The notes beneath the pieces were generated by a model, which saw only the letters and a list, made by a program, of their open reading frames with translations, had not been told where the DNA came from and searched no databases. Source: Candidatus Pacearchaeota archaeon (GTDB lineage: Archaea > Nanobdellota > Nanobdellia > Pacearchaeales > GW2011-AR1). From it: 64,000 bases of DNA. Below, in pieces: positions 12,738 to 62,441 of the stretch. The position numbers and the translations under genes are program-made. The stretch is from positions 70,659 to 134,658 of the forward strand of contig JAPLXZ010000010.1 in NCBI GenBank assembly GCA_026395815.1, in the 5' to 3' direction. How positions within the stretch are numbered: the first letter of the stretch is position 1; every line of letters starts with the position of its first letter.

Positions 12738-12794
12738 TGAATTATAAACTTTGAACCTTTTTAAAAGATTTTTATAGAAAAATATATACTTAAT

Positions 12795-19331: not shown

Positions 19332-19388
19332 GATTAGATAATTCTATAGAATACAAAATCTTTTAAATAGATAATAGATGCTAAAAAC

Positions 19389-21181: not shown

Positions 21182-21728
21182 CCTTGAACATCTTTCTTAA
21201 AATACTGCTAAATAACATAGCAAAAATCAAATAAAACCAAAACCAATTTAAAAAACCAAAGAATTTTGGATTTCCTAATAAAACAAAGAAATCATTGAAC
21301 CATCTAAAGAACAAAATGAATGGAATTCCGGTAAATAAGATAGACCTGCTTGTTAATTTAAATGTTTTTGGTATAAATTCAAACTGCTTCTTTGATAACT
21401 CTGCTGTTTTTCCTGGATCATCTCTAAATTTTTTCATTTCTTCCTGTAACATCTTTTGCTGTTCTTTCAATTCTTTTAAAGCCCCTTGATCTGTTGCATA
21501 CTTTTGCAACAGGGTTGTTATTAAAGTTATTATGAAGATTATTATAATCATCCCAATTTCAATATTCCATTTCAGCAAAACACCGGCACTTGGATTTAAA
21601 ACAGCATGAACTGCATTTTTTATAAAAGGAATCTGATCCCAACAAGCAGCAATGACTACAGAAGCAATCATTACAAAGATTATAGGCATAAAACTACCGT
21701 CTTTTTTACCCATTTTATCATTAATCAA
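21174..21728 (-). CDS. DUF106/EMC3-like (archaeal YidC-like) membrane protein
   Basis: TM, charged coiled loop (KELKEQQKMLQEEMKKFRDDP), TMs; canonical position downstream of secY. Confidence 0.6.
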   Translation of the reverse strand: MINDKMGKKDGSFMPIIFVMIASVVIAACWDQIPFIKNAVHAVLNPSAGVLLKWNIEIGMIIIIFIITLITTLLQKYATDQGALKELKEQQKMLQEEMKKFRDDPGKTAELSKKQFEFIPKTFKLTSRSILFTGIPFILFFRWFNDFFVLLGNPKFFGFLNWFWFYLIFAMLFSSILRKMFKVV

Positions 21729-21743
21729 ATTTACTTTTTAAAC

Positions 21744-23183
21744 TTAAGTTTTCATAAATTTCCTTAATGCAGGATTCATATCTGTTTGATGTTGCTGAAC
21801 AATGTTCTGATAGAACTGAAAGAAAATCATTACAACAAGCAAGATAGCTGTTCCAGAGGTTAATGCTCCCATTAAGTTTGTTACTGAAGCCAAAAATCCA
21901 ATAGCAATTCCCCCCATAACAGTTAAAGGCATGATATACCTGTCTAAAATGCTTTCTAAAACTCTTTCATCCTGCCTAAATCCTGAAATTTGCAATCCTG
22001 AAGAAGATATCTTATTGGCTTGAGCCTTTGAATCCATTCCTGAAGTCTTAACCCAAAATACTGCGAATAAAGTTGAAAGAACTACATAAAACAAAATGTG
22101 AGTTAATCCCTGAAGTAAATACTTTAGCAAAAATCCCCCCCTTATTATTAATTCTAGAAGATTAGTTGAACCCATCCAGAATGCTAAACCAGAAATTGGC
22201 TGTCCATCAATAAAATGTCCTAAAAATCCAAAATAGGAAGCAAACTTTGCAATTCCTGCGCAAGTTCCTCCAACTATAAAGCAGGGAGCAGCAGCATTCT
22301 CTAAGATTCCTCCAAAGACTTGAAAGCTAACAACCAATGCAGCAGTTAAGATTACAGGAATGTTTGAAGCATAAAAGAAAGATAAAGGCCATTTTACATT
22401 ATAACCTCTTATTCTTCCCATTGACAATGGAACTTCTACTTTCAATGATTGTGCCCATACAATAACCAAGAAGATTATTACTGTAGCAATGATTGCACCT
22501 GCAGCAGATATTAATTCTGTAGGATATTTGTTAATTACTGCTTGTATCAAAACAAAGATTTTCCCAGGACATGCTGTTTTCCCAAAATCTAACAGACAAT
22601 TTCTTCCCTCTTGATTTACAAACTGAATTGCGCTAGTTATCAAATGCCATGAAGCACCAGCTGCAATAAACAAGCTTATTCCAGAACCGAATCCCCACTT
22701 GCTTGTTACTTCGTCCATATAATAAATTGCTATTCCTCCAAGTATTAATTGAAAGATAAGAAGCGGAGCAAGACCAGGAGATGCCTGCAATCCTTGCATT
22801 AAAACATAAATAAGTGCCTCAAAAATTATAAAGAAGAGAGTCAAGATTTTTTGAATTCCCTGAAAAAACTTTCTACCTTCAACACTCGTTGTGTCTATAT
22901 TAAGTATTCCACTTCCAGTAAGCAACTGCAAAATAACTGAAGCCATTACTATTGGTCCAATACCCAAAGAGATTATGCTTCCAAAGTCAGTCCCAAGAAT
23001 TATTGCTAAATATTTGAATCTTTCAAGAGCATTATTTGAAAGTCCGAAAAGCGGGATGTTTGCGAGAACAAAAAAAGAAACCAAGATTATCAAAGTCCAT
23101 TTTAATTTTACACTAAAACTTACTTTTTTCTCATCAGGACTTTTGACTTCTGGTATAAATTTGAATATGCCTCTTAAATCCAT
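21744..23183 (-). CDS. secY: Preprotein translocase SecY
   Basis: Family-typical sequence. Start set at MDLRGIFKF because the 16 extra track codons read through the leader element. Confidence 0.9.
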   Translation of the reverse strand: MDLRGIFKFIPEVKSPDEKKVSFSVKLKWTLIILVSFFVLANIPLFGLSNNALERFKYLAIILGTDFGSIISLGIGPIVMASVILQLLTGSGILNIDTTSVEGRKFFQGIQKILTLFFIIFEALIYVLMQGLQASPGLAPLLIFQLILGGIAIYYMDEVTSKWGFGSGISLFIAAGASWHLITSAIQFVNQEGRNCLLDFGKTACPGKIFVLIQAVINKYPTELISAAGAIIATVIIFLVIVWAQSLKVEVPLSMGRIRGYNVKWPLSFFYASNIPVILTAALVVSFQVFGGILENAAAPCFIVGGTCAGIAKFASYFGFLGHFIDGQPISGLAFWMGSTNLLELIIRGGFLLKYLLQGLTHILFYVVLSTLFAVFWVKTSGMDSKAQANKISSSGLQISGFRQDERVLESILDRYIMPLTVMGGIAIGFLASVTNLMGALTSGTAILLVVMIFFQFYQNIVQQHQTDMNPALRKFMKT

Positions 23184-23222
23184 TATGCAAAATCTCCTGT
23201 TTTGTATTTTGGTTGAATTTCC
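23181..23222 (-). repeat. 3' half of the conserved leader element, directly before secY
   Basis: Sense strand: GGAAATTCAACCAAAATACAAAACAGGAGATTTTGCATAATG. Confidence 0.6.
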
Positions 23223-23274
23223 TGTGCACAAGTTCCTCGTCTTGTGCAGTGGCTGACTTCCTGTCTGCTACGTT
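23223..23274 (-). other. GC-rich (~54%) spacer with two predicted hairpins
   Basis: 8-bp stem TGCACAAG/CTTGTGCA (23225-23232 with 23241-23248), plus GCAGAC/GTCAGC with one mismatch. Confidence 0.35.
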
Positions 23275-23331
23275 CTACCATTGTGCAAATCTCCTAAATT
23301 TGTATTTATGGCAAATTTCTCGTTTGCTCAT
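23275..23331 (-). repeat. Full leader-element copy with no gene attached (mini-ORF MSKREICHKYKFRRFAQW)
   Basis: Sense strand: ATGAGCAAACGAGAAATTTGCCATAAATACAAATTTAGGAGATTTGCACAATGGTAG. It starts at a TAAAATG junction with the rpl15 stop. Confidence 0.6.
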
Positions 23332-23332
23332 T

Positions 23333-23773
23333 TTATTTCACTAAAATTTCTCCACCCGCCTCTTTTACTTTTTCCATTGCAGATTTTGAAGCTTCTTTTG
23401 CTTTTATAATCAATTTTTCTTTTATTTCTCCATCACCAAGGATTTTATAATCCTCTAAATTAACTTCCCATTTATCCTCTTTCTTCTTCCCGTAGGTTTT
23501 AAGATTTTGTTCTATTGTTCCAAGATTTATTCTTTTCCTTTTATCTCTCTCTGTTCTTTTGCTAGTGATTCCTTGTTTTCCAAAATATTTATTGCCAAAC
23601 AATTTTATGACAAGGCTTTTTTTCTGGTCTGCTCTTTTTCCTGTTCCAGACATTCCTTTCCCACCATAATGTCCTTTCTTCTTGTGTTTTTTTCTCTCTC
23701 CCCATCCATGCGTTCCTCTACCTCTTCCTTGCATTCTGCTTGATTTTCTTCTTTTGTGTGTTTTGATTGCCAT
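23333..23773 (-). CDS. rpl15: Ribosomal protein uL15
   Basis: GRGRGTHGWG...GGKGMSGTGKR motif; operon position. Confidence 0.85.
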   Translation of the reverse strand: MAIKTHKRRKSSRMQGRGRGTHGWGERKKHKKKGHYGGKGMSGTGKRADQKKSLVIKLFGNKYFGKQGITSKRTERDKRKRINLGTIEQNLKTYGKKKEDKWEVNLEDYKILGDGEIKEKLIIKAKEASKSAMEKVKEAGGEILVK

Positions 23774-23774
23774 T

Positions 23775-24080
23775 TTATTTCACTATTATCCTTTTTAATT
23801 TGTTTATATCTAACTGTCCTTGATGAGCTGATGCATAACATTCGTCATATCTTTCATCCCACAAGTCTAATCTAACAAGTTCACACCTTAGATGATAATA
23901 ATCATAATAGATATCACTATCAACATAATTAGATTTTCCCTCTTTAATTTTTTTAGCTATCCTATCTATAGCGATTATTTTGTCTTTCACATCTCGATTA
24001 ACTAAGGTTCTATAATAATCTGGTTTCCCTTTCATTACTTTTGTAACTTCTTCTGCAACAACTTGAGCTATGGTTTTCAT
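23775..24080 (-). CDS. Hypothetical 101-aa protein inserted between rpl30 and rpl15
   Basis: ORF tightly packed (1-nt gap to rpl15); no family recognised. Confidence 0.5.
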   Translation of the reverse strand: MKTIAQVVAEEVTKVMKGKPDYYRTLVNRDVKDKIIAIDRIAKKIKEGKSNYVDSDIYYDYYHLRCELVRLDLWDERYDECYASAHQGQLDINKLKRIIVK

Positions 24081-24166
24081 AACATCCTCTCTATTAACTC
24101 ATTTATTTTCTCTTCCGATTTTTTGTTTACAAAATATCGCAAACTGAAATTAATTTTTTTCATCAT
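24077..24166 (-). other. 29-codon mini-ORF (MMKKINFSLRYFVNKKSEEKINELIERML) bridging rpl30 and the 101-aa ORF
   Basis: ATGA overlaps at both ends. Its C-terminus repeats the rpl30 C-terminus (TEINKLIERML). Confidence 0.45.
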
Positions 24167-24510
24167 AGCATTCTCTCAATTAATTTATTAATTTCAGTTT
24201 TATTATTTCCTAAAACTCCCTTCCCAATTCCAAAAGGTTTTTTGCTTTCAATTCCCTTTCTTGGTGGATGTAATCTAAAAAAGGTTTTTGATTTCTTTCC
24301 ACGAGCTTGAACTAATTTTTCATATGTTTCTTCGCTAATATCACCATATGCAACAAAATTCCTAACTTTTTCAATCATCCCTAATTGTTCTTTGCCTGGT
24401 TTTTCTGAAACAATACACGAATATTTCTTTTTTAATCTCAATCTTTCAAATGTTTCTTTTATCTCTTTTCTTAGCCCAACATTTCCTTTTATCCTTATTA
24501 CTGCTATCAT
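24163..24510 (-). CDS. rpl30: Ribosomal protein uL30
   Basis: MIAVIRIKGNVG start; ATGA overlap with the rps5 stop. Confidence 0.8.
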   Translation of the reverse strand: MIAVIRIKGNVGLRKEIKETFERLRLKKKYSCIVSEKPGKEQLGMIEKVRNFVAYGDISEETYEKLVQARGKKSKTFFRLHPPRKGIESKKPFGIGKGVLGNNKTEINKLIERML

Positions 24511-25277
24511 CTTTCTTTCTCCATATTTGTTTTTTCTAATGCATTGATACATGCTTTTACTAAATTTGATGTTGTTCTTCTGCTTCCAAAACTTTTGCTA
24601 TAAACATCTTTTATTCCTGCAAGTTTTAATACTTTTTTTAATTCATTTGCTACTACAAGGCCTGTTCCTTGTGGTGCAGGTGTCAAGATTATTTCTACGC
24701 TTCCTGCCTTTCCAATTACCTTGAATGGTATGCTGTGTGGTTCTGAACAAGCACAATCAAAACTTGAACACCCTCTTGTTACTTTCATGATATTCAATTT
24801 TGCTTTTCTTATTGCTTTGTCTCTTGCTGGAAGAGTTTCTTTTGCTTCTCCTGCTCCAATACCAACATGTCCGTCTTCATCGCCAATAACAGCAAGAGTA
24901 GAGAATGTTGGCACGTTTCCTTCTTTTGTTTTTCTTTGGGTTTGTTTCCATGCTCTTCTTTTTCCTCCACCAAACTTCCCTTTTGATTGTCCTATAGAAA
25001 TTAAATCAGATTTTACATTCAATAAAAAATCAACAATCTGTTGTTCCAATATTTTTCTTTTGCTTGTTAAAATATCATCAATATTCTTGATGTTTTTTTC
25101 CTTAACTTCTCTTCCGAGTTTTGTTTTTGGGATCCATGAAGCGAGTTCCTGTTTTCTGCTTTCTTCTTCTCTTCTCGTTTTTTCATCGATTATTTTCAAT
25201 TCTTTATCTATTTCTTTCTCTAAAAGTTCTTCGCTTATTATTTCTGGTTTTTCTTCATTAATTTTTTTCTCGGTCAT
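24507..25277 (-). CDS. rps5: Ribosomal protein uS5
   Basis: S5 dsRBD and C-domain sequence; K/E-rich N-terminus. Confidence 0.9.
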   Translation of the reverse strand: MTEKKINEEKPEIISEELLEKEIDKELKIIDEKTRREEESRKQELASWIPKTKLGREVKEKNIKNIDDILTSKRKILEQQIVDFLLNVKSDLISIGQSKGKFGGGKRRAWKQTQRKTKEGNVPTFSTLAVIGDEDGHVGIGAGEAKETLPARDKAIRKAKLNIMKVTRGCSSFDCACSEPHSIPFKVIGKAGSVEIILTPAPQGTGLVVANELKKVLKLAGIKDVYSKSFGSRRTTSNLVKACINALEKTNMEKER

Positions 25278-25279
25278 TT

Positions 25280-25774
25280 TTAGTTTTTTTCTATCTTCGA
25301 TTTAATTTCATTGAATTTTTGTGAAAAATCTTTTTTCATGTGTTTTCCACTTATCCTATCTTTATCTGGGAAACATTCTTCATCACATTTTATTTTTATT
25401 CCAGATTCTATAATTCCATTCAAAAAAGCATAAGCTCTATTTTTTCTTATTGCTCTAACCATACCAAAATCAGCAATAGGGGTTTTTAATTTGTTTTTGA
25501 TGATTTCTTTTCCTATAAGCAATCCAGTTAAATATGCTGCTGGAATTGACTTCAAACTTCCACTCATTTCATTAGGCCAACCGTATTTGATTAAAGCTTT
25601 TGAAGTCAATCCTATCTCGACTTTGTCTTGCGCTTCTTTGCTTGTTACATATTGTGCGAGGATATACTTGTTTGTTTTTCTGAAAATTACTCTTGGACAC
25701 TTGTTTTTTAACAATTTTATTCTCTTCAAATAATCTGTTTTTCCTTCCTTCCTTCTTCGCTTTAAAGTTTTCAT
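25280..25774 (-). CDS. rpl18: Ribosomal protein uL18
   Basis: Sequence and operon position. Confidence 0.85.
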   Translation of the reverse strand: MKTLKRRRKEGKTDYLKRIKLLKNKCPRVIFRKTNKYILAQYVTSKEAQDKVEIGLTSKALIKYGWPNEMSGSLKSIPAAYLTGLLIGKEIIKNKLKTPIADFGMVRAIRKNRAYAFLNGIIESGIKIKCDEECFPDKDRISGKHMKKDFSQKFNEIKSKIEKN

Positions 25775-26172
25775 TATTTATTTCCTCCAAAATATTCTTT
25801 TATATGGTTTTTATCCCTGAAGAATTTATTTTTTATTTTTTTTCTTACATCTTCCAATTCTTTTTTTGTCAACTTTCCCCTTACTTCTGCAACGTACTTT
25901 CTTAATTTTCTTGTTAAGATCATATAGTCTCTCTTACGCGTTTTTACTTTCTTTTTAATATTTCCAGTGCTTCTTTTTTTCTTCTTTTTGATATTTGTCT
26001 TCCTGCCTTTAATGTTCTTTATTGTTATTGCCCCATCTTTTTGCAAATCTCTAATATCCTGTTTTGTAATTGCTTCTTTTATTTCATCTAATCTAGAATT
26101 TGAGAAGGCAATTCTCTCTAACCCAACTCCAAAAGTTCTTGCAGCTAATAATTTTTTCTTTTTTAAATTCAT
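25774..26172 (-). CDS. rpl19e: Ribosomal protein eL19
   Basis: Start set at MNLKKKKLLAAR, downstream of GGAGG. Confidence 0.85.
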   Translation of the reverse strand: MNLKKKKLLAARTFGVGLERIAFSNSRLDEIKEAITKQDIRDLQKDGAITIKNIKGRKTNIKKKKKRSTGNIKKKVKTRKRDYMILTRKLRKYVAEVRGKLTKKELEDVRKKIKNKFFRDKNHIKEYFGGNK

Positions 26173-26222
26173 TATGTAAAACCTCCCGTTTTGTATTTGT
26201 GGCAAATTTCTTGTTTGCTCAT
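26170..26222 (-). repeat. Leader-element copy (reference copy); mini-ORF MSKQEICHKYKTGGFT
   Basis: Sense strand: ATGAGCAAACAAGAAATTTGCCACAAATACAAAACGGGAGGTTTTACATAATG. ATGA overlap with the rpl32e stop; TAATG overlap with the rpl19e start. Confidence 0.65.
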
Positions 26223-26599
26223 TTTTTCTTCTCCTTATCTTTTACTTCTTTTCTTTCATTTTTCTTTAGGAATTTTTCTGTATTAATGTTTGAAACATGA
26301 ATTCCCATCTCTTTTGCTTTTTTTATCAATTCAATTTTTTTTCTTTTTCCGATTTTTCCAATTATTATACTTTCCTTTGCTTTAACTTTTTCAAGTTCCT
26401 TTAAATTGCTGATTAGCATTATTTTTTTCTTATCTTCCTGTTTATACCCTATTCTTACTGACGCAGGATATCCTTTTTGTTTTTCTCTCATTTTATTATG
26501 CCTTCCTTTTGGTTTTCTCCAAACTTGTTTTTTCTTTCTTCCTTTCCCAAGCCGTGAATGCTTATCCCAGTTTCTTCTTAAGAATTTAATTTTTCCCAT
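26219..26599 (-). CDS. rpl32e: Ribosomal protein eL32
   Basis: Start set at MGKIKFLRRNW; KGRHNKMR motif. Confidence 0.85.
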   Translation of the reverse strand: MGKIKFLRRNWDKHSRLGKGRKKKQVWRKPKGRHNKMREKQKGYPASVRIGYKQEDKKKIMLISNLKELEKVKAKESIIIGKIGKRKKIELIKKAKEMGIHVSNINTEKFLKKNERKEVKDKEKKK

Positions 26600-26641
26600 T
26601 ATGCAAACCTCCCGGGTTGTATCCACAATTTCTGAGGACAT
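26597..26641 (-). repeat. Divergent leader-element copy before rpl32e
   Basis: Sense strand: ATGTCCTCAGAAATTGTGGATACAACCCGGGAGGTTTGCATAATG. Here the upstream ATG is in frame with rpl32e. Confidence 0.5.
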
Positions 26642-26663
26642 ATGAAAAATTTACTTTCCATAT

Positions 26664-27206
26664 TTACATTTCCTCCCCGCATTTGTTGGTTATGAATATG
26701 CCGTCTTGAAAAACTCTTCTGTCTCTTTTAGAAATTCTTGTAACATTCTCTAAATTAGCTGCAACCATCCCAGCTAATTCTTTGTTTATTGACCTTACTG
26801 TTATTATTTCTTTTTCAACTTCAACTTCAATTCCTTGAGGAAATTTTATTCTCCTTGGAACTTTTTCACCCAAAAAATTCTTTATTATTACTTCATTATT
26901 CTTAAGTTCGGCAGTTATAGGAAAATGGCTAAAACAAACTTTCAACTTATATTCGAATTTTTTTTGAACACCTTTAATCATATTTCTGATATGTGCAGCA
27001 ATTGTATTCATTATTCTTTTTTCTTTTTTAGTTGCTTTTTTGTTTCCTATTATTATTTGATTGTTTTTCTTTTCTGCGCTTAATTTTGAGAAATCAAATT
27101 TTCTTTCATTTATTCCATGTGTTCCACTGACTTTGACAAGATTTTCAATTAATTCAACTTCTACCCCATTTGGAATTTCAATTGTTTGGAATAATTCTTT
27201 TTTCAT
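26664..27206 (-). CDS. rpl6: Ribosomal protein uL6
   Basis: Sequence and operon position. Confidence 0.85.
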   Translation of the reverse strand: MKKELFQTIEIPNGVEVELIENLVKVSGTHGINERKFDFSKLSAEKKNNQIIIGNKKATKKEKRIMNTIAAHIRNMIKGVQKKFEYKLKVCFSHFPITAELKNNEVIIKNFLGEKVPRRIKFPQGIEVEVEKEIITVRSINKELAGMVAANLENVTRISKRDRRVFQDGIFITNKCGEEM

Positions 27207-27209
27207 AAT

Positions 27210-27590
27210 CTAGTAAAAATATGCTACCAAGCATCCTCCTGTTCCTTCTGTTAATGCCTCTTCATGAGTCATTAATCCCTTATTTGTTGAGATTATCATT
27301 GTTCCTATGTTTCTTGCTGGAAGATATCTTCTCTGATATTTTTCAATTTGCTCTTTTTTGACGGTGAATCTTGGTTTGATTGCCCTGCATTCAGACAACT
27401 TTCCAATGCCTACTTCTACGCTTTTCTTTTTGCTGTTGATTTTGTATTTCTTTATTGCTTCTTGTTGTTTCATTATTTTCAAAACCTCGATTAATAAATT
27501 TGAAATCTTTTTTATCTCTACATTTTCTTTTCCAGATTTTTTCGCATTCTTTATCATGTTTAGTGCATCAGCAACTGTATCTTGTGACAT
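27210..27590 (-). CDS. rps8: Ribosomal protein uS8
   Basis: Start set at MSQDTVADALN; TAAAATG junction with the rps14 stop. Confidence 0.85.
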   Translation of the reverse strand: MSQDTVADALNMIKNAKKSGKENVEIKKISNLLIEVLKIMKQQEAIKKYKINSKKKSVEVGIGKLSECRAIKPRFTVKKEQIEKYQRRYLPARNIGTMIISTNKGLMTHEEALTEGTGGCLVAYFY

Positions 27591-27591
27591 T

Positions 27592-27822
27592 TTATGAGTA
27601 TTTTTGAAAACCGATTTCTGTGGCAATTTCCCTGAAACAGTGTCGGCATAAATTTAATCCGTATGACTTTATATGTGCTCCAAATCTTCCGCATCGTTCA
27701 CATTTCTTTGCAGCAATCCCAATTTTTCTTTCCTTTGGCTTGTTATGTTTCAAAAATTTCTCCATAACTGCAGGTTTGTTCTTCAATTGTTTCAAAATTT
27801 TTTTCCAATCACTTGCTGTCAT
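27592..27822 (-). CDS. rps14: Ribosomal protein uS14 (zinc type)
   Basis: CERCGR...CRHCFRE motif. Confidence 0.8.
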   Translation of the reverse strand: MTASDWKKILKQLKNKPAVMEKFLKHNKPKERKIGIAAKKCERCGRFGAHIKSYGLNLCRHCFREIATEIGFQKYS

Positions 27823-27887
27823 TTAACAAACCTCCGTTTGGCGAATGAGTTAAAAATTTTCAGATTCAAAGGTAAGTTTTTTCTCAT
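27819..27887 (-). other. 22-codon mini-ORF (MRKNLPLNLKIFNSFAKRRFVK) between rpl5 and rps14
   Basis: Its own GGAG lies 6 nt upstream of its ATG. Its stop overlaps the rps14 start (ATGA). It contains a CAAAC-GGAG-GTTTG hairpin. Confidence 0.45.
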
Positions 27888-27897
27888 GTTTTTCTCC

Positions 27898-28401
27898 TTA
27901 TATAAATTTTGTTTGGAAGTTTTCTTCCATAAATTTAATTATTTCCTCTTTACTAATCCCTTGTCTTTCTGGAATTTTTCCTGTTTTTATTTTTCTTAAT
28001 TTTACCCTTCTTCCTGCTCTTTTGAATACAACAGTAACATCTAATCCCTTAATTCCAATATCTCTCTGATAGTCCATCCCAGGAATTTCAATGTATTCTT
28101 TAAGTCCAAATGAAAAATTATTCACACTTATTTGGTTCTTTTTTAGTTTATTGTCTATCGCGACTAACATTCTCTTTAATACTGCTGGAACATCTTTTCT
28201 TATTGTAGAAACAGCTCCAACTTCTAATTTTGGACGAACTCCAAATGCAGGGATTCTTTTGTGAGATTTTATCTTTGCTGGCTTTTTATTAGTCAATAAT
28301 TGAAGAAGTTTTACTCCTTTTTCTAATTCTTCTGCAGTTCCACCTACACTTAGCACAATCTTCTCCATTCTTATCTGTCTGTTCGGATTTTCGTTTTTCA
28401 T
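27898..28401 (-). CDS. rpl5: Ribosomal protein uL5
   Basis: Sequence and operon position. Confidence 0.9.
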   Translation of the reverse strand: MKNENPNRQIRMEKIVLSVGGTAEELEKGVKLLQLLTNKKPAKIKSHKRIPAFGVRPKLEVGAVSTIRKDVPAVLKRMLVAIDNKLKKNQISVNNFSFGLKEYIEIPGMDYQRDIGIKGLDVTVVFKRAGRRVKLRKIKTGKIPERQGISKEEIIKFMEENFQTKFI

Positions 28402-28403
28402 AT

Positions 28404-29054
28404 TTATTCAACCACCATTAATTGATTTATTAATATGTTAATTTCCCTATCTTCAATTTTTATTTCTGCTGTTTTATCCTTTAAATTTAATTTATTGATT
28501 ACTCCTTTTTTTCCAGAATGTTTTCCAGCAAAAACAATCACTTCAGCTTTTTCCTTTAATGGAAGACACTTTTCTATTTTTCCTTCCTTAAGATTAATCA
28601 AAACAGAATCATTTATATTACATTTAACTTCAGATAAAGAGTTTCTTCCATCACTTAAATTCAGTTGGATTTTCTTCCCCCTTAAACTTTTTTTATTGAT
28701 TATTTTTGATATTTTCTTTTCTGTCTCTGTTTTGTTTATCTCTTTAAGATAAAACTTTCCTTTTTCTGATAGTTCTAACCTATAACATTTATTTAGGGGG
28801 ATAACATTTATCGTATCGAATAATAAAACATTGTTCTTTTCATCTTTTATCTTTCTCTCATTTACTAAAACCTGTCTCAAATGAATTATCTTTTTTGCCT
28901 CTTTCCTTGTTTGTGCTAATTTGAGCAGATCTCTTAAAATAATTAATACTGGAATTCCCTTATTAATATTAAAATTAGGCTTGACTACATAAGTTGAGCC
29001 CTTTCTTTTTATTGGCCAATTTCTCGGAACTTCCTGTCTCATTAAATGACTCAT
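28404..29054 (-). CDS. rps4e: Ribosomal protein eS4
   Basis: Sequence and operon position. Confidence 0.85.
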   Translation of the reverse strand: MSHLMRQEVPRNWPIKRKGSTYVVKPNFNINKGIPVLIILRDLLKLAQTRKEAKKIIHLRQVLVNERKIKDEKNNVLLFDTINVIPLNKCYRLELSEKGKFYLKEINKTETEKKISKIINKKSLRGKKIQLNLSDGRNSLSEVKCNINDSVLINLKEGKIEKCLPLKEKAEVIVFAGKHSGKKGVINKLNLKDKTAEIKIEDREINILINQLMVVE

Positions 29055-29464
29055 TTTTTATCCTCCTTGTCTTCTTTTTTCTTTTTTTCTTTGCTAATTT
29101 CTTTTATTCTTTTTTTGTCTTCTGTATTCAAATCAATAATCTGTAAATTTGAAGGATGCATTTTCACATTTGCTTTTGAACCATCTTGCTTTTTAACTTG
29201 TACTCCCTCAATTATCACTTTTGAATTTTTTACATCAACTTCAATGATTTTTCCTTGTTTTTTCTTAAATTTTCCTTTCATTATTTTGACATTATCTCCT
29301 TTCCTTATCGGAACATTTCTTTTTCCATATTTTTTTCTAAGTTCCTTTGATAAATTAACGCTTAATAATTTCCTTTTTATATGTAATGGAGCATTCGCTG
29401 AATATTTTCTTTGTTTTCTTGGTTGTTTGCTTGCTTTCCAATGTGTTGAAAATTCTTTTTTCAT
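29051..29464 (-). CDS. rpl24: Ribosomal protein uL24
   Basis: KOW motif RKGDNVKIMKGKFKKKQGKI. Start set at MKKEFSTHWK, at a TAAAATG junction with rpl14. Confidence 0.85.
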   Translation of the reverse strand: MKKEFSTHWKASKQPRKQRKYSANAPLHIKRKLLSVNLSKELRKKYGKRNVPIRKGDNVKIMKGKFKKKQGKIIEVDVKNSKVIIEGVQVKKQDGSKANVKMHPSNLQIIDLNTEDKKRIKEISKEKKKKEDKEDKK

Positions 29465-29465
29465 T

Positions 29466-29867
29466 TTAATATACACTTGCAGCGATTTTAGCAACTGATG
29501 GCCATCGCTCCATAACCTCCCTTGCAACAACACCCTTAATCTGAGTTCCCTTAGGATTTCCTTTATCATCTTTTAAAAGGGCAACAGCATTATCTTCAAA
29601 TGCAACCATCTCTCCATTTAATCTTTTATAAGACTTTTTTTGTCTAATTACAATTGCATCAAAAACCTTGCCTTTCATTTCAGGGAGACCTTTTCTTACA
29701 CTTACTTTTACCCAGTCAGCAACTTTTGCATATCCTTGTCTTCCTTTCTTGGTTTTTCCATGCTTTATTGAAACGAGTTTTGTTACTTTTGCTCCGCTGT
29801 TATCTGCAGCAATCATAATTGCTCCGATATTCAATCCTCTTGTTACTCTAGCGCTTACTGGTTTCAT
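29466..29867 (-). CDS. rpl14: Ribosomal protein uL14
   Basis: Sequence and operon position. Confidence 0.9.
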   Translation of the reverse strand: MKPVSARVTRGLNIGAIMIAADNSGAKVTKLVSIKHGKTKKGRQGYAKVADWVKVSVRKGLPEMKGKVFDAIVIRQKKSYKRLNGEMVAFEDNAVALLKDDKGNPKGTQIKGVVAREVMERWPSVAKIAASVY

Positions 29868-29923
29868 TTAAAATTGTCTCCGTGTTTATTTTGAATGAAT
29901 GAAAATCTTTGATTTACTTTCAT
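29864..29923 (-). other. 19-codon mini-ORF (MKVNQRFSFIQNKHGDNFK) between rps17 and rpl14
   Basis: TAAAATG junction with the rps17 stop; ATGA overlap with the rpl14 start. Confidence 0.45.
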
Positions 29924-29924
29924 T

Positions 29925-30275
29925 TTATCTTTCTCCCGCCGATTTTATTTTTTTAATTACAACGAAATGAATTATCTTGCTCAATGGACGGCATTCCTGA
30001 ATCATTATTAAATCTCCTATTTGAATGTCATTTTCTATGCATATTGGAAGTCTTGCATGAATTTTTGTTCTTGATTTGGAATATCTTTCATATTTTTTGT
30101 TGTAAATCATCCTCTCAAATTCGATTACAATTCTTTTTGGAAATTTCTTAATGACTCTTCCTTCAAAGATTCTTCCTCTTGTTTTTAACCCACCATGAAT
30201 ATGACATCTCTTATCATTGCAAATAGTAGTGACTATTTCTTTTTCTTCTTTCGATTTTTTTTCTGTTTTTTTCAT
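29925..30275 (-). CDS. rps17: Ribosomal protein uS17
   Basis: CPIHGGLKTRGRIFEGRV-type core. Start placed at MKKTEKK; the longer track start at 30344 would overlap SUI1 by 44 nt. Confidence 0.75.
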   Translation of the reverse strand: MKKTEKKSKEEKEIVTTICNDKRCHIHGGLKTRGRIFEGRVIKKFPKRIVIEFERMIYNKKYERYSKSRTKIHARLPICIENDIQIGDLIMIQECRPLSKIIHFVVIKKIKSAGER

Positions 30276-30300
30276 TTTTTTTCTGTTTTTGTGTATGTCT

Positions 30301-30597
30301 TTAGTCAATCGCACCCGGTTCAAATCCAAGCTTGACAAGGACATCTTTTATCTTTTTCCTGTGATCTCCTTGGAGTTCTATTTCATTGTTTTTACTCGTT
30401 CCTCCACAAGCAAGCTCGTTTTTAAGAGCTGTTGCGATCTTCTTTATGTCAATTCCATCTCCAAGTCCGGTTACCAATGTGACCAGTTTCCCGTATCTTT
30501 TCTTTTCAGTGGTCACTTTTATACTCTGTGAACCTTTTGCGATTTTTTCACATACACATGCTTGCTCAGGCAAGCCACATTTTGGACATATTTCCAT
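30301..30597 (-). CDS. Translation initiation factor SUI1/aIF1
   Basis: N-terminal CPKC...CVC followed by a SUI1 fold (GKLVTLVTGL...ELQGDHRKKI). Confidence 0.8.
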   Translation of the reverse strand: MEICPKCGLPEQACVCEKIAKGSQSIKVTTEKKRYGKLVTLVTGLGDGIDIKKIATALKNELACGGTSKNNEIELQGDHRKKIKDVLVKLGFEPGAID

Positions 30598-30599
30598 TG

Positions 30600-30818
30600 T
30601 TACTTGTTCTTCTCAACTTCTTTAGAAGATTTATTTTCTTTAAAGTTATTGAGTGTGAGTATTCTAGCCATAGTCTTTTTTATTTCTTTTATCTTTGAAC
30701 TTCCTGATTTTGAAGCACTTACTTTTGCTTTGACCAATTCAAACTTTAATTCTTCAAATTTTTTATCTCTTTCACTTTTACTCATCCTTCTAATGTCTTT
30801 TGTTTTTAATATTGCCAT
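30600..30818 (-). CDS. rpl29: Ribosomal protein uL29
   Basis: Sequence and operon position. Confidence 0.8.
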   Translation of the reverse strand: MAILKTKDIRRMSKSERDKKFEELKFELVKAKVSASKSGSSKIKEIKKTMARILTLNNFKENKSSKEVEKNK

Positions 30819-30819
30819 T

Positions 30820-31509
30820 TTAATCCTTCTTCACCTTTTTTCTTTTCTTTGGTTTAATTTCTTCTTCTTTAATTTTTTCAAGTTCAACCACATTCATTTT
30901 TAATCTCGCTATGACCTCTTTGTCAATTATTACCTTATCTTTTAATATTGCATAAGGAGAAAGTATGCTCACTTTAACTCCAACTGTTCCTGGTTTTGTT
31001 TGTGCTACAGATTTTGCTCTGTCTACTACTTTTGCACTATCCCCGACTTTTTTTAAGTAACCCTGGGAAAATCTCCATGTCTTTGCTCTAGCACTTGGAA
31101 GCTTTCCACCTAACACAATTTCTGCTCCCAATGCACCGGCGTGCATGATTTTTTGAAGACTTTTATAAGCAATTACTTTAAATCTAAGTGGTCCCATTCT
31201 TTCTAGTCCTAAAGCAATTTCATCAGCGACGATTTGTGCATCAAACTCTGGTTGTTTTATTTCGTCTATATCTATTCTTGGATTTTCAAATTTGAATTTG
31301 CTTTTCAAAATATTTGTTAATTCTTCAATTTTCTCTCCTTTCTTTCCTATGATTAGTCCTGGCTTATTAGTCGATATAATTACTTTCTCCCCTATTGGTG
31401 TGTATTCTATTCTAACTCTGCTTATTTTTCCTTTTCCCAATATGCTTTTGATATATTCCTTAATCGCGAATTCATCTTTCTTTAATTTTACAATATTTCT
31501 TTCTTCCAT
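30820..31509 (-). CDS. rps3: Ribosomal protein uS3
   Basis: KH domain (GLIIGKKGEKI); operon position. Confidence 0.9.
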   Translation of the reverse strand: MEERNIVKLKKDEFAIKEYIKSILGKGKISRVRIEYTPIGEKVIISTNKPGLIIGKKGEKIEELTNILKSKFKFENPRIDIDEIKQPEFDAQIVADEIALGLERMGPLRFKVIAYKSLQKIMHAGALGAEIVLGGKLPSARAKTWRFSQGYLKKVGDSAKVVDRAKSVAQTKPGTVGVKVSILSPYAILKDKVIIDKEVIARLKMNVVELEKIKEEEIKPKKRKKVKKD

Positions 31510-31514
31510 CTTAT

Positions 31515-31730
31515 TTATTTAGTGTCCTCCCAATACTTACATTCATTTAACGCATTCTCCGTCCCAGATTCAATTCCTTTATAAGGTATGTTCAAGACTT
31601 CACATATAACATGTAATGCATTATTAATCCCTGAAAGGTAAGCAGAATGCATTATCATTAACTGATCTTCTTTTACAAGTTTTTCAAGACCTGTTCTTAT
31701 TCTATTAAATTGTTCATTATTAATTTCCAT
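31515..31730 (-). CDS. Hypothetical 71-aa protein inserted between rpl22 and rps3
   Basis: Tightly packed ORF (1-nt and 5-nt gaps); no family recognised. Confidence 0.45.
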   Translation of the reverse strand: MEINNEQFNRIRTGLEKLVKEDQLMIMHSAYLSGINNALHVICEVLNIPYKGIESGTENALNECKYWEDTK

Positions 31731-31731
31731 T

Positions 31732-32430
31732 TTATTTCTTCTTCTCCTTTTGAATTATTTTTCTCTCTTTTGCTTTAATTCGAACATGTGTCCTTTTTCT
31801 CCTTATGCTTCCAAATCTTCCATAAGGAAGAGATGCCCTGTTCGGAATTGCTTCAACAATTATAGGTTCATCTAATTCATTTACATTTGAATTTGCTTGC
31901 AAATTTTTTAATAATTTTATGAAATGTTGAACAGCATATATAGGATATCTGCCTGCCATTATTCCTTTTCCTTTCCTATGAGGAATTTCTCCTTTCATTG
32001 GAATTGCTTTTTTGAATTTCAAAACTTCTTCTAAATCAGCAATTGCCTTTGCAATTGTCTTTTTCTTAATGAATCTGCAGATTGCAACAGAATCTTTTGT
32101 TGAGATAGGAAGACTTATGCCATTTACAATTGCTTCATTTTTCTTGATTTTTGGTTTTGTTTTTTGTTTCTTCTCTTCCTTTACATCAGTTTTTTTGTTT
32201 TCTTCTTGTTTTTTCTCTTTGACTATAGATTCTTTCTTTTCTTCAACTTTTGTTTCTTCTTTTTTATCCTCAATTTTTTCTTCTGGTTTTTTTACTTCAG
32301 CTAGCTCTATTTTTTGCAATTGTTCGACTTTGGCAGATAAGTGGCTAACTTCCTGTTTGCCATCTGCTTTCCGCTGTTTCTGCATCGTTTTCATTGATTT
32401 CTGTTCTGGATTATAATTTTTTTCTGTCAT
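31732..32430 (-). CDS. rpl22: Ribosomal protein uL22 with a ~100-aa Lys/Glu-rich N-terminal extension
   Basis: The C-terminal ~135 aa are uL22-like (ISTKDSVAICRFIKKK...). Confidence 0.85.
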   Translation of the reverse strand: MTEKNYNPEQKSMKTMQKQRKADGKQEVSHLSAKVEQLQKIELAEVKKPEEKIEDKKEETKVEEKKESIVKEKKQEENKKTDVKEEKKQKTKPKIKKNEAIVNGISLPISTKDSVAICRFIKKKTIAKAIADLEEVLKFKKAIPMKGEIPHRKGKGIMAGRYPIYAVQHFIKLLKNLQANSNVNELDEPIIVEAIPNRASLPYGRFGSIRRKRTHVRIKAKERKIIQKEKKK

Positions 32431-32438
32431 TTTGTATT

Positions 32439-32840
32439 TTATTTTTTAGCCTGAGACCTTGTTCCTTTTGTTGAACCAATCCCAGCACTTCCATGTTTTA
32501 TCTTAGATCTCGTTGGTACAAACTCTCCTAGTCTATGTCCCAACATTTCTTTTAATATTTCTACAGGAACAAATGCATGTCCGCTATGAATTTGTATTTT
32601 CATTCCAATCATCTGAGGAACTATGACTAATGCTCTCTTGTGTGTTTTTATTGGCTTATTTTTTTCTGCTTTTCCTTTAGCTCTGCTTACAAAGTTCTCC
32701 ACGTTCTGGAATTGTCTGAGAACAGCTCTTCTCTGTCGTGATTTTAAATATTTTGCGAATTCTCTAACATCTAACGTTTTCAATTCATCGATTGTCTTTC
32801 CCCGGAAAGTAAATTGTTTTTTTGTTGTTTCTATTGCCAT
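32439..32840 (-). CDS. rps19: Ribosomal protein uS19
   Basis: Sequence and operon position. Confidence 0.9.
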   Translation of the reverse strand: MAIETTKKQFTFRGKTIDELKTLDVREFAKYLKSRQRRAVLRQFQNVENFVSRAKGKAEKNKPIKTHKRALVIVPQMIGMKIQIHSGHAFVPVEILKEMLGHRLGEFVPTRSKIKHGSAGIGSTKGTRSQAKK

Positions 32841-32887
32841 TACGAAAATTCTCCTGAATTTTTGTTTATGTAAAATTTATTTTTCAT
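32838..32887 (-). repeat. Leader-element copy; mini-ORF MKNKFYINKNSGEFS
   Basis: Sense strand: ATGAAAAATAAATTTTACATAAACAAAAATTCAGGAGAATTTTCGTAATG. TAAAATG junction after rpl2; TAATG overlap into rps19. Confidence 0.55.
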
Positions 32888-32888
32888 T

Positions 32889-33590
32889 TTATCTTTTCTT
32901 CCTTCCTGTTCTTCTTGGCCTTATTAATCCAACTCTTGCTCCAGGAGGAGCATTTCTCTTCGCTATTTTACTTTTGATTCTCTTTCCTCTACCACTTCCG
33001 AATGGATGGTCTATAACATTCATCTTGACAGCAGAGGTTCTTGGCCATAATCTATTTCTTGATTTTTTCATATGAAATTTTTTTCCTGCTTTGATTACAG
33101 GTTTATCCAATCTTCCTGCTCCTGCAATAACCCCAATAATCGCTCTGCAATTGGAATTAAACTTCCTTTCTTTTTTTGATGGAAGTAATAGGAATATATT
33201 CTCACCCACAATTTTGTTTACAACAGCATAGTTTCCACCAGTTCTTATGAAAACTCCCCCATCTCCTGGATTTGATTCAATATCATAAACTTGTGTTTTT
33301 AATGGAATGTCTTTTAATTTGAGTATATTCCCTGTTTTTGCTTCTTTTTCTTCAAAACTTATTTTTTGTCCTTCAATAATCCCCTTGCATGCAGGAATGT
33401 AAAAAATTCCCCTTTCATATTTTATTTTTGCTAAAGGTGCAGAATGCCCAGCAGAATTGAATAGTTTAATGACTGTTCCTTCTCCTTTAAGTTCTCTTGG
33501 ATATTTCAGTCTGAATCTGTATGCATTTCTTCTAACTCGGTAACTGAAACTTCCATGCCCTCTTGCCTGTTGAATTATTCGCTTTCCCAT
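32889..33590 (-). CDS. rpl2: Ribosomal protein uL2
   Basis: Sequence and operon position. Confidence 0.9.
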   Translation of the reverse strand: MGKRIIQQARGHGSFSYRVRRNAYRFRLKYPRELKGEGTVIKLFNSAGHSAPLAKIKYERGIFYIPACKGIIEGQKISFEEKEAKTGNILKLKDIPLKTQVYDIESNPGDGGVFIRTGGNYAVVNKIVGENIFLLLPSKKERKFNSNCRAIIGVIAGAGRLDKPVIKAGKKFHMKKSRNRLWPRTSAVKMNVIDHPFGSGRGKRIKSKIAKRNAPPGARVGLIRPRRTGRKKR

Positions 33591-33640
33591 TATGCAAAAT
33601 TTCCTAATTTTGTATCTTTGAAAAATTTCTTGTTTTTCAT
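33588..33640 (-). repeat. Leader-element copy; mini-ORF MKNKKFFKDTKLGNFA
   Basis: Sense strand: ATGAAAAACAAGAAATTTTTCAAAGATACAAAATTAGGAAATTTTGCATAATG. It starts 7 nt after the rpl23 stop and has a TAATG overlap into rpl2. Confidence 0.6.
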
Positions 33641-35667: not shown

Positions 35668-35742
35668 TTCTTAATAGTGCGGATAACATTTTATCTTACC
35701 CTGGATAAAATATTGAGAAAACTGGGCTTTTTAAGGGTTTCT

Positions 35743-56553: not shown

Positions 56554-56554
56554 A

Positions 56555-56657
56555 ATGAGCAAACAAGAAATTTGCCACAAATAAAAAACGGGAGGTTTTG
56601 CATAATGAGCAAACAAGAAATTTGCCACAAATACAAAATAGGAGATTTTGTAAAATG
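56555..56657 (+). repeat. Two tandem leader-element copies
   Basis: The 50-nt unit ATGAGCAAACAAGAAATTTGCCACAAATA... starts at 56555 and again at 56605. Mini-ORFs are MSKQEICHK and MSKQEICHKYKIGDFVK. Confidence 0.7.
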
Positions 56658-56858
56658 ACAGAAGTTAAATATAAAGATTTTTGCAAAGAAAGTGGATGTA
56701 GATTATATGGACTTTTAACAAAAGTAAATTCATTTGAAAATCCTTCCCCCCTAGTAATAGTTCAAAAAGAAGTTATTGAAAGAAGATGTAAAGAAAATTG
56801 CGAGCATACAGCACATGAACTCTATGAATGGTTAAAATCAAGAAGAACTATTGATTAA
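56655..56858 (+). CDS. 67-aa Cys/His-rich protein (MTEVKYKDFCKESGCRLYG...CKENCEHTAHE...)
   Basis: The start overlaps the mini-ORF stop (ATGA). The longer track N-terminus reads through the leader element. Confidence 0.5.
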   Translation: MTEVKYKDFCKESGCRLYGLLTKVNSFENPSPLVIVQKEVIERRCKENCEHTAHELYEWLKSRRTID

Positions 56859-59491: not shown

Positions 59492-59878
59492 TTACACTTT
59501 TCTTTTGATTATTTTTTCTCCTTCAACATCCCAATATTCAACATTTGAATTTACTTCAATTTCTTGCTTAACTTCTTCAGGACAATTAACTTCCAATGTT
59601 TCAAAACTCTCCAAATCCATAATGCTAATCTTTTCTCCTATTGAAAGAACCTGCCCCTTTCTTTTGTTTACTATTGGGACTTCTATTCTTTCATGCCCCG
59701 GGACAACAAAAACTTTTTTTTGTCCAGAGATTATTCCAGCAGCTTCAACTCTTGCTTTGCTGTGTCCGTGCTTTCCTGTTTTGCTTATATCAATTTTTTT
59801 TACAGTGCAGGATTCTCCTTCGAAAATTATGTTAGTACCCACCTTCATTTCAGTAGCATTAATTATCTTTAAGACCAT
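59492..59878 (-). CDS. Translation initiation factor 5A
   Basis: SKTGKHGHSKA hypusine loop. Start set at MVLKIINATEM. Confidence 0.85.
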   Translation of the reverse strand: MVLKIINATEMKVGTNIIFEGESCTVKKIDISKTGKHGHSKARVEAAGIISGQKKVFVVPGHERIEVPIVNKRKGQVLSIGEKISIMDLESFETLEVNCPEEVKQEIEVNSNVEYWDVEGEKIIKRKV

Positions 59879-59999
59879 TATGCAAAACTCCTGTTTTGTA
59901 TTTGTGCTGAAAACTTCCTGTTTTCTGTCATTATGCAAAATCTCCTAAATTTTGTATCCGCAACAAAGTGAAGACATTGAAAAATTTCCTGTTTTTCAT
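59876..59999 (-). repeat. Two tandem leader-element copies before aIF5A
   Basis: Mini-ORFs MKNRKFFNVFTLLRIQNLGDFA (59931-59999) and MTENRKFSAQIQNRSFA (59878-59931), each ending in TAATG. Confidence 0.65.
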
Positions 60000-60023: not shown

Positions 60024-60031
60024 TTTATAAA
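60024..60031. promoter_or_regulatory. Palindromic TATA box TTTATAAA shared by divergent units
   Basis: Centre lies ~26 nt from the FKBP ATG (60053) and ~28 nt from the first mini-ORF ATG (59999). Confidence 0.4.
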
Positions 60032-60718: not shown

Positions 60719-60749
60719 TTTTTATAAACAGACATAACCTTTTTTTAAC

Positions 60750-62410: not shown

Positions 62411-62441
62411 ATCTTAAAAACCCCTGTTTTCTGTTTATTGT

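Follow-up and report, generated by a model that had tools for sequence, protein, structure and literature searches.

The long spacers of the rpl3–secY ribosomal protein (r-protein) gene cluster of a Candidatus Pacearchaeota archaeon appear to be copies of dispersed insertion cassettes, each of which would carry ribosomes across the interval that it opens between two genes. The cluster runs along the minus strand from 35667 to 21744 in the 64-kb stretch of contig JAPLXZ010000010.1 analyzed here (the window, whose positions are used throughout; GC content, ~30%). Every long spacer contains a short open reading frame (ORF) coupled to the upstream stop and to the downstream start, a geometry that we call a relay. 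We put at roughly three in four the probability that these spacers are insertions resembling the interspersed repetitive units of mycobacteria (MIRUs) and synthetic bicistronic designs (BCDs), which preserve termination-reinitiation, rather than an operon-specific regulator. An initial annotation of this DNA had recognized the mini-ORFs and suggested that the act of translating the spacer, not the peptide, is what matters. The comparative evidence below favors that idea in part, and a regulatory role specific to the operon does not survive it. What the annotation missed is that the spacers form a dispersed repeat family, with copies outside the cluster and directly 3' of promoters, variable in position and between strains.

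Mini-ORFs bridge every long spacer of the cluster

Because the ORF listing begins several genes too early, at the first start codon that follows a stop, we reset the starts of rps17, rpl24, rps8, rpl32e, rpl19e, rpl30, and secY by homology and by the position of the Shine-Dalgarno (SD) sequence. With the corrected starts, exactly eight spacers in the cluster exceed 40 nucleotides (nt), and the remaining junctions measure -4 to +8 nt with the sole exception of sui1-rps17 (25 nt). Mini-ORFs with stop/start coupling bridge each of the eight long spacers (Table 1) and amount to 9 units in 12 kb of the r-protein operon and 13 in the whole window. We reproduced all of the mini-ORF peptides and junctions quoted in the initial annotation; the coupling that it described therefore stands, and its count of seven bridged spacers out of eight becomes eight out of eight. 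The spacer that it set apart, rpl6-rpl32e, is bridged as well, and the protein read from the rpl32e ATG at 26599 spans positions 2 to 108 of the 108-position Pfam L32e profile, with GGGAGG upstream of that ATG. Nor is the rpl15 mini-ORF without a partner, as had been thought, for its TAG falls within a second, 32-codon mini-ORF that leads onto secY.

When the interior of each spacer was shuffled, the relay arose with P = 0.004 to 0.10. The exception was rpl32e-rpl19e (0.41), whose fixed ends and length already set the frame. Since the copies are paralogous, these P values cannot be multiplied.

Relay geometry is enriched in related clusters

A scan for L14 in species-representative genomes gave 80 Pacearchaeota/Woesearchaeota-type clusters, for which gene models were rebuilt by tblastn. 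Spacer lengths over their 1,423 junctions are trimodal, with tight junctions (716 in the -4, -1, and +1 classes alone), a peak at 40 to 60 nt, and a broad peak at 250 to 330 nt. In spacers of 40 to 130 nt the relay geometry was 4 to 12 times commoner than in shuffles, with 18 relays observed versus 4.4 expected at 40 to 49 nt, 25 versus 2.9 at 50 to 59 nt, 20 versus 2.4 at 60 to 79 nt, and 14 versus 1.2 at 80 to 130 nt. In longer spacers, where the bridge consists of larger inserted ORFs, the counts were 137 versus 1.2 (131 to 400 nt) and 53 versus 0 (401 to 1,000 nt). Bridged spacers thus numbered 77 out of 152 at 40 to 130 nt, and 190 out of 250 longer ones were bridged by inserted ORFs. The unbridged spacers fall mostly at four junctions: rpl15-secY, which has a leaderless promoter; sui1-rps17, bridged by a mini-ORF in 0 of 16 cases; and rps4e-rpl5 and rpl18-rps5, where N-terminal extensions resulted in misplaced starts. 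The sui1-rps17 spacer (window positions 30276-30300, minus strand) carries a motif of its own, CATACACA, conserved within an ~20- to 80-nt spacer across relatives (L011, L041, L048, L059, L066, L018, and others; L numbers denote related loci).

At least one relay mini-ORF was present in 43 of the 80 clusters, with a maximum of 6 per cluster and at varying junctions. Junctions that hold a cassette in the window are mostly tight in the relatives, whose own cassettes sit at other junctions.

These data bear on whether the mini-ORFs are simply chance ORFs in AT-rich spacers or artefacts of gene-start calling. With ends and length held fixed, a 15-codon frame does stay open in ~0.24 to 0.42 of shuffles for three of the spacers. 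We nevertheless rejected this reading and give it next to no weight, given the full shuffles described above, the enrichment across 80 genomes, the agreement of independent assemblies, and the membership of the copies in sequence families.

The spacers are members of dispersed repeat families

By nucleotide sequence, the mini-ORF spacers group into repeat families with a common layout of ~48 to 70 nt, 5'-ATGA…GGAG…TA-3' followed by the ATG of the gene, or longer where modules are nested inside. The 5' ATGA contains the start codon of the cassette itself and also remakes the TGA stop for an upstream gene whose stop overlapped the original ATG. From there a frame of ~15 to 22 codons stays open. 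The SD sequence, GGAG or GGAGG, lies inside the mini-ORF at 6 to 9 nt before the ATG of the gene and, together with the TAATG or ATGA end, gives the arrangement of a BCD. The 3' end is either TA, which forms TAATG with the ATG of the gene, or AA before a gene that starts with ATGA. Accordingly, family A (ATGAAAGCAAATCAAAGATTTTCATTCATTC…GGAGGTTATTTTAAATGA) uses as its stop the TGA of a gene starting with ATGA, and families B, C, and D (…AAATTT…ATACAAAA..GGAGRTTTTGCATAATG) supply their own TAA. Several minor types exist besides these four, among them the MKKINF.L type, to which the 29-codon ORF between rpl30 and orf101 belongs and which is also found in L006.

Searches with nhmmer identified 59 family A and B/C/D copies in the window and the 80 loci; all 59 lie on the strand of the flanking genes, and nearly all have an intact relay. 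Four of the copies in the window are outside the cluster, at 56.6 kb and upstream of aIF5A. Tandem arrays occur at both of these places, at rpl15-secY, and in L020 and L034; at 56547-56658, Tandem Repeats Finder reported a period of 50 nt and 2.2 copies.

Table 1. Cassette copies in the window. Spacer lengths refer to the eight long spacers of the r-protein cluster.
Cassette	Family	Position	Strand	Spacer (nt)	Mini-ORF	Junctions and remarks
rpl23-rpl2	B	33590..33640	-	57	MKNKKFFKDTKLGNFA	ATG 7 nt past rpl23 stop; TAATG on rpl2; SD-like GGAA at -13
rpl2-rps19		32840..32887	-	48	MKNKFYINKNSGEFS	5' TAAAATG, 3' TAATG; GGAG in AAAATTC/GAATTTT loop
rps17-rpl14	A	29864..29923	-	57	MKVNQRFSFIQNKHGDNFK	5' TAAAATG, 3' ATGA overlap with rpl14
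rpl5-rps14		27819..27887	-	75	MRKNLPLNLKIFNSFAKRRFVK	Own GGAG upstream; ATGA overlap with rps14
rpl6-rpl32e		26599..26661	-	64	MESKFFICPQKLWIQPGRFA (20 codons)	ATG 2 nt after rpl6 stop; TAATG onto ATG 26599
rpl32e-rpl19e	C	26172..26222	-	46	MSKQEICHKYKTGGFT	5' ATGA, 3' TAATG; GGGAG in AAAAC/GTTTT loop
rpl30-orf101 (ORF29)	MKKINF.L type	24077..24166	-	82	MMKKINFSLRYFVNKKSEEKINELIERML	ATGA overlap at each end
rpl15-secY, first unit	C	23275..23331	-	149	MSKREICHKYKFRRFAQW	5' TAAAATG; TAG overlaps ATG of next unit by 7 nt
rpl15-secY, second unit		23183..23281	-	149	MVERSRQEVSHCTRRGTCAQEIQPKYKTGDFA	TAATG-coupled to secY ATG 23183
56.6-kb pair, unit 1	C	56555..56604	+		MSKQEICHK	Follows ORF of 116-142 amino acids (TAAAATG); decayed, TAA after 9 codons
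56.6-kb pair, unit 2	C	56605..56658	+		MSKQEICHKYKIGDFVK	ATGA overlap on start (56655) of 67-amino-acid gene
aIF5A, unit 1		59931..59999	-		MKNRKFFNVFTLLRIQNLGDFA	TAATG leads onto unit 2
aIF5A, unit 2	D	59878..59931	-		MTENRKFSAQIQNRSFA	TAATG-coupled to aIF5A ATG 59878

Some cassettes contain nested in-frame modules of 18 to 66 nt, several of them small palindromes (AACC…GGTT, GCGAT…ATCGC, and CAGACAGGAAGTCAGCC), and the same modules recur in different cassettes. Carriers include L010, L014, and L067 (all family A), L002 (8989-9061), the window itself (23223-23270, minus strand), and the metagenome loci L090, L104, L125, L131, and L167. The modules may be a second layer of mini-insertions.

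The first 6 to 12 nt of some family A copies look like the 5' end of the downstream gene. This resemblance is inconsistent among copies, and we discarded a target duplication extending beyond ATG(A).

Family C in metagenomes and cassettes behind promoters

Metagenomes were scanned for family C with its 5' 22-mer alone, so that the 3' half was not preselected. The scan returned 104 copies in 97 metagenome stretches, at least 5 of them on one 652-kb contig, and in ~78 of the 104 the mini-ORF ends in an intact TAATG on the downstream ORF. The targets are rpl19e, secY, rpl18, rpl23, rpl5, and aIF5A together with many unrelated genes. Fifty-two copies follow a long ORF (37 by ATGA overlap), ~18 follow another cassette in mixed tandem arrays, and ~12 are preceded by a TATA box ~28 nt before the cassette ATG. 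Among unique copies of nonstandard length, 17 out of 29 remain in frame and open and 12 are out, where about one-third would be expected to be in frame.

The copies behind TATA boxes can be compared with ordinary promoters of this genome. In the window, TATA boxes of the TTTAAAAA type begin ~28 to 29 nt before the ATG in the other same-strand spacers of more than 30 nt, which, with one exception (1306-1368), have no mini-ORF. This distance indicates that promoter-proximal genes are translated from leaderless mRNAs. Examples of cassette-free spacers with a TTTAAAAA or TTTATAAA box are 21714-21743, 12738-12794, 19332-19388, 60719-60749, and 62411-62441. In the exception, on the plus strand, a 20-codon ORF (MSISLYINTYKLNLFPSTIV) bridges a 65-nt spacer with TAAAATG at both ends; it is outside the cassette families and could be a chance ORF or an unrelated coupler.

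The ATG of the first aIF5A unit lies 32 nt downstream of the start of a TTTATAAA box (60031..60024), that is, in the position of a leaderless start. At secY, cassette-free relatives (L002, L012, and others) have the same AATCTTTAAAAACTAATTT… promoter directly at the secY ATG, and in L105, L106, and L124 this promoter adjoins the cassette ATG instead. The cassette therefore takes the exact former position of the start codon.

A TATA-like role could also be sought within the cassettes. They contain an A-rich tract (AAATACAAAA or CAAAATAAA) ~20 to 28 nt before the ATG of the gene, roughly at the distance of the genuine TATA boxes, and if this tract made each cassette an internal promoter for leaderless mRNAs, the mini-ORF would be incidental. 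The genuine promoters, however, have T-first TTTAAAAA or TTTATAAA boxes, which the cassettes lack, and cassettes are themselves found ~28 nt downstream of such boxes, where a second promoter would be redundant. The SD sequence would moreover precede the proposed transcription start site, and the conserved ATG, open frame, in-frame indels, and stop/start overlap would go unexplained. We consider an internal promoter module very unlikely.

Two pattern scans of viral contigs returned no cassette copies, and we dropped a viral vector as a candidate carrier on that result.

Cassettes differ between near-identical strains

Strain-level comparisons show the cassettes present, absent, or rearranged in otherwise similar clusters. 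Two independent assemblies, L081 (ENA) and L089 (JGI), from strains 98.7% identical to the window, are without 63 nt of the rpl5-rps14 spacer, which leaves 12 nt (TAAGGAGAAAAAAATATGACAGC); in the window the 63-nt insertion is flanked by ATGA…ATGA. Both assemblies also have an extra ORF of 73 amino acids between rps8 and rpl6 (2722-2943 in L081). In L117 and L169, 97 to 99% identical to the window, the second rpl15-secY unit is without the 48-nt in-frame module that it holds in the window, and the two units are joined by a clean TAATG where the window, through a TAA-to-CAA change, has CAATG…TAG. In L117 a 39-codon composite cassette replaces orf101 (454-573), and all junctions from rpl30 to secY are nonetheless coupled by ATGA, TAATG, or TAAAATG. 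Module indels (48 nt) and cassette replacement were thus both seen between strains, and a plain change of unit number at one locus was not. The strain-level indels of 63 and 48 nt are multiples of three, as the initial annotation had suggested checking.

Where a cassette is shared, its frame persists. The rps17-rpl14 copy has the same sequence in strains L081 and L082, the rpl6-rpl32e ORF is still open despite 3 single-nucleotide differences from L081/L089, and the 29-codon ORF is open in L117 although the 82-nt spacer has 6 mismatches. The relay is kept in all of these strains. At the sites occupied by cassettes in the window, most relatives simply show a tight junction.

Between strains, cassettes differ at 12 of 350 nt (3.4%) compared with ~1.2% in the neighboring genes. 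Conversely, L005 and L007 share a 57-nt cassette that is 100% identical at different junctions, while their r-protein genes are only 75 to 82% identical. Fast local drift together with near-identity across distant genomes is better explained by spread from active copies than by site-specific purifying selection. We speak of insertion elements because the cassettes are gained, lost, and rearranged quickly and are near-identical between distant genomes.

These comparisons weigh on the idea of a translation device selected by the host, in which cassettes would be kept to improve or standardize the initiation of highly expressed genes, as a natural bicistronic design that frees initiation from local mRNA structure. 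Their architecture is that of synthetic BCD couplers as outlined in section 11 of PMC12548453 (a leader ORF, an embedded SD sequence, and a TAATG end), many of the targets are translation genes (r-proteins, secY, and aIF5A), and the SD sequence is displayed in a hairpin loop. The positions are unconserved, however, to the extent that the sites occupied in the window are tight junctions in the closest species-level relatives, and presence differs even among near-identical strains. Cassettes also evolve faster than the genes next to them, decayed copies persist, and many unrelated genes are among the targets. A host-selected device is on balance unlikely, if still worth serious thought. Given the unconserved positions and the variation between near-identical strains, the relay looks like tolerance of insertion, as in MIRUs, and not like a device that evolved for the operon.

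The frame and its end points are conserved, not the peptide

The initial annotation was right that the peptides are not conserved. Entropy at codon positions 1/2/3 is 0.81/0.60/0.69 and 0.54/0.55/0.71 in the two main families, with no excess at the third position, and between-strain substitutions in cassettes are mostly nonsynonymous while the frame stays open. In one aIF5A copy, the loss of one nucleotide after GGAG is offset at an upstream position, which preserves the stop but not the residues, and in-frame internal modules of 18 to 66 nt, several of them small hairpins, are tolerated. Taken together, the absence of codon periodicity, the nonsynonymous changes, the offset indel, and the tolerated modules indicate that what is conserved is the frame with its two ends, not the peptide.

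We accordingly rejected peptide selection. Functional micropeptides or regulatory leader peptides, in which the 15- to 22-residue products or the nascent chains would act, for example by arrest or attenuation, could draw on the family motifs KFSFIQ and QEICHKYK and on the hydrophobic positions kept in family A. All four observations above speak against them. Nothing that would characterize an attenuation or arrest leader was found in the spacers either: there is no codon periodicity, whole-spacer folds are no more stable than those of shuffles (z from +0.8 to -2.0), no alternative terminator/antiterminator fold is seen, and an Rfam search of the cluster gave nothing at E ≤ 1 except one chance-level match (in the whole window, one tRNA alone reached the gathering score). 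We hold an active peptide to be very unlikely indeed.

The annotation had also proposed that a ribosome crossing the spacer would melt a hairpin at the SD sequence. Since RNAalifold predicted zero pairs for 40 cassette 3' halves aligned with MAFFT, we judged this hairpin by shuffling the flanks and by contingency tests. The longest stem around the SD sequence averages 5.47 bp compared with 4.23 bp when the flanks are shuffled and 2.94 bp at ordinary tight junctions; the mean minimum free energy is -3.4 versus -2.4 kcal/mol. The SD sequence falls within a loop in 43 of 64 cassettes and in 31 of 150 controls. The stems vary by copy (CAAAAC/GTTTTG, ATTCAC/GTGAAT, GAAATAA/TTATTTC, CAAG/CTTG, and CAAAC/GTTTG), and the position that closes the loop is pairable in 162 of 176 cases (C-G, 57; U-A, 73; U·G, 32) and C-A in 14, although these counts include paralogous copies and are not independent events. 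That U·G is tolerated there hints at pairing in the RNA. The hairpin proposed earlier thus exists, and the stem around the SD sequence is a real but weak feature.

A model for ribosome hand-over

In both Haloferax volcanii and Escherichia coli, ~20 nt between stop and start nearly abolishes termination-reinitiation (PMC10666635), and because reinitiation collapses at this distance an untranslated spacer of 46 to 149 nt should uncouple the r-protein genes. We propose that the cassettes avoid this outcome. A ribosome would come from the upstream gene, from an upstream cassette, or, at a promoter-proximal copy, from leaderless initiation; it would then read the mini-ORF across the spacer and in doing so melt the small SD hairpin. 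Termination would take place over the next start codon, whose SD sequence lies 6 to 9 nt upstream, and the ribosome would reinitiate there. The ATGA of the cassette would supply the start and, where needed, the TGA stop of the upstream gene, and behind a promoter its ATG would occupy the leaderless position. In this way the tight stop/start coupling of the operon could survive the insertion, and the cassettes may act as a portable translation-initiation region.

Several observations weigh against reading the spacers as mobile relay cassettes. No transposase was found, no target duplication could be defined beyond ATG(A), and inspection of the family alignments, carried out with no formal test, showed no clear terminal inverted repeats but just the A/U stem at the SD sequence and a direct repeat, ATGA. 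Mobility rests on patterns of presence, absence, and identity, in which gain looks the same as loss through a deletion between ATGA repeats. The SD hairpin is of low stability (-3.4 kcal/mol at 37 °C; mean z, ~-0.7), has no consensus structure in RNAalifold, and is supported by loop-closing counts in which paralogs recur. For the relatives, start codons were assigned automatically from tblastn, and misplaced starts account for some of the spacers there, such as rps4e-rpl5 and rpl18-rps5. Of the unique family C copies, about 18% have a frameshift, in most cases GGAGTTTTG with a 1-nt loss, and the first unit at 56.6 kb has a premature TAA, so a strict relay is not indispensable; in such broken copies the SD sequence may allow fresh initiation, or a stop a few nucleotides past the ATG may suffice. 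Finally, it is from sequence that we infer translation of the mini-ORFs, reinitiation as the mechanism, and movement of the cassettes.

Comparison with known systems

The closest parallel that we found is with the MIRUs of Mycobacterium, described by Supply et al. in 1997 and summarized in section 11 of PMC12548453 and in PMC3184786. According to these summaries, MIRUs are 40- to 100-bp intercistronic repeats, co-oriented with their neighbors, whose ORF overlaps the neighboring stop and start; insertion takes place at start codons, with -4 coupling, and filled sites are bounded by tetranucleotide direct repeats. The cassettes likewise are short dispersed repeats with many copies, oriented with the flanking genes, and they form tandem arrays. 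Their small ORF overlaps or abuts the neighboring stop and start at its ends, apart from the frameshifted family C copies, and apparent start-codon insertion is seen as empty and filled sites with a tetranucleotide direct repeat, here ATGA. The archaeal elements differ in several respects. Their host is a DPANN archaeon of the Pacearchaeota/Woesearchaeota type and not an actinobacterium; they comprise several sequence families with two 3'-end designs (an own TAA giving TAATG, or the borrowed TGA of an ATGA gene); a small hairpin loop holds the SD sequence; some copies stand directly 3' of TATA boxes, where a leaderless start would be; nested in-frame modules are present; and the density in the r-protein operon is high. 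Given an archaeal host with ~30% GC, we claim analogy and not homology, a likeness drawn from descriptions.

Synthetic bicistronic designs, or two-cistron couplers, are reportedly due to Mutalik et al. in 2013. They share with the cassettes a leader of ~16 codons, a second SD sequence within the 3' end of that leader, and a stop overlapping the start codon of the target gene (TAATG). The cassettes, in contrast, are natural, repeated, and evolving, their function is a prediction, and their leader would be entered by upstream coupling or leaderless initiation instead of from a strong SD sequence of its own. The principle of such couplers, as set out in section 11 of PMC12548453 and in PMC5995908, is that the leader cistron brings the ribosome and unfolds the initiation region. 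Studies of coupled gene pairs published in 2019 (PMC6728339) and 2023 (PMC10666635) describe the -4 (ATGA), -1 (TAATG), and +1 (TAAAATG) geometries that we find at both ends of the mini-ORFs, but for ordinary gene pairs, whereas here a noncoding-like repeat forms an intermediate cistron over 46 to 149 nt. The same geometries dominate the uninterrupted junctions of the related clusters.

Rickettsia palindromic elements and the enterobacterial RU/MITE repeats insert inside protein-coding genes, become part of the protein, and have inverted repeats. The archaeal cassettes are instead separate cistrons between genes, in which inspection showed no clear terminal inverted repeats. Common to all of them is that small repeats with ORFs survive in expressed regions by keeping a frame open (PMC2759123).

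Implications

A literature search returned no prior description of such elements in DPANN or other archaea, which does not prove that none exists. Whether the cassettes represent a class of mobile mini-elements not previously described in archaea, which target start codons, carry a self-sufficient hand-over module, and spread between genomes, and whether together with the coupled ORFans they make the r-protein operons of DPANN archaea insertion hotspots, is in our judgment evenly balanced. If this is so, the hand-over module would work alike behind a coupled gene and a leaderless promoter, and the cassettes would be natural evidence that termination-reinitiation is the dominant mode of translation for internal genes in these uncultured archaea. 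Tight coupling would then be under strong selection in organisms that cannot be cultured for genetics, such that an insert between r-protein genes would survive only by passing ribosomes on. The principle embodied by MIRUs, a translationally transparent repeat hidden in operons, would extend from actinobacteria to archaea, with a leaderless-compatible version added. There would be practical consequences too: short-read contigs would break at cassettes, gene callers would over-extend starts (as for rpl32e, rpl19e, and secY), and the cassettes would offer ready-made, compact coupler parts for archaeal expression design, testable in archaeal expression systems.

Other features of the window and related loci

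Larger insertions are common in the same operons. An inserted ORF of more than 40 amino acids is present in 51 of the 80 related clusters, at varying junctions; we considered integron-like landing sites for these ORFs and rejected them, finding a cassette adjacent to just 8 of 191 long insertions. One recurrent gene of ~200 to 220 amino acids with the N-terminal motif IVLDIETSG…GIWQIGA, which resembles that of a DEDD-type exonuclease, lies between rpl4 and rpl23 in L002, L004, L010, L015, L017, L021, L039, L048, L049, L052, L063, L066, L068, and L077 and is absent from the window. Within the window, orf71 (31515-31730) and orf101 (23775-24080), both on the minus strand, are ORFans of the r-protein cluster that are coupled at both ends; a Pfam search gave no match for either.

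In other samples, some short-read contigs of this organism stop within or beside these repeats. L084 and L085 begin 26 nt before aIF5A, and L083 ends in the rpl15-secY spacer, which is consistent with assemblies breaking at repeats but uninformative. Exact-protein look-ups of aIF5A and rpl15 gave contigs of this kind, and those of rpl2 and rpl19e gave no matches.

Upstream of rpl3, the 75 nt at 35668-35742 (minus strand) contain CCCTTAAAAAGCC ~45 nt from the first ATG and ~67 nt from the rpl3 ATG. Judging by this spacing, transcripts of rpl3, the first gene of the operon, may begin with a genuine 5' leader that contains a short out-of-frame ORF, in contrast to the leaderless genes in the rest of the window. 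On the plus strand, a tRNA match extends over 122 nt at 39512-39633, a length that points to an intron-containing tRNA gene.

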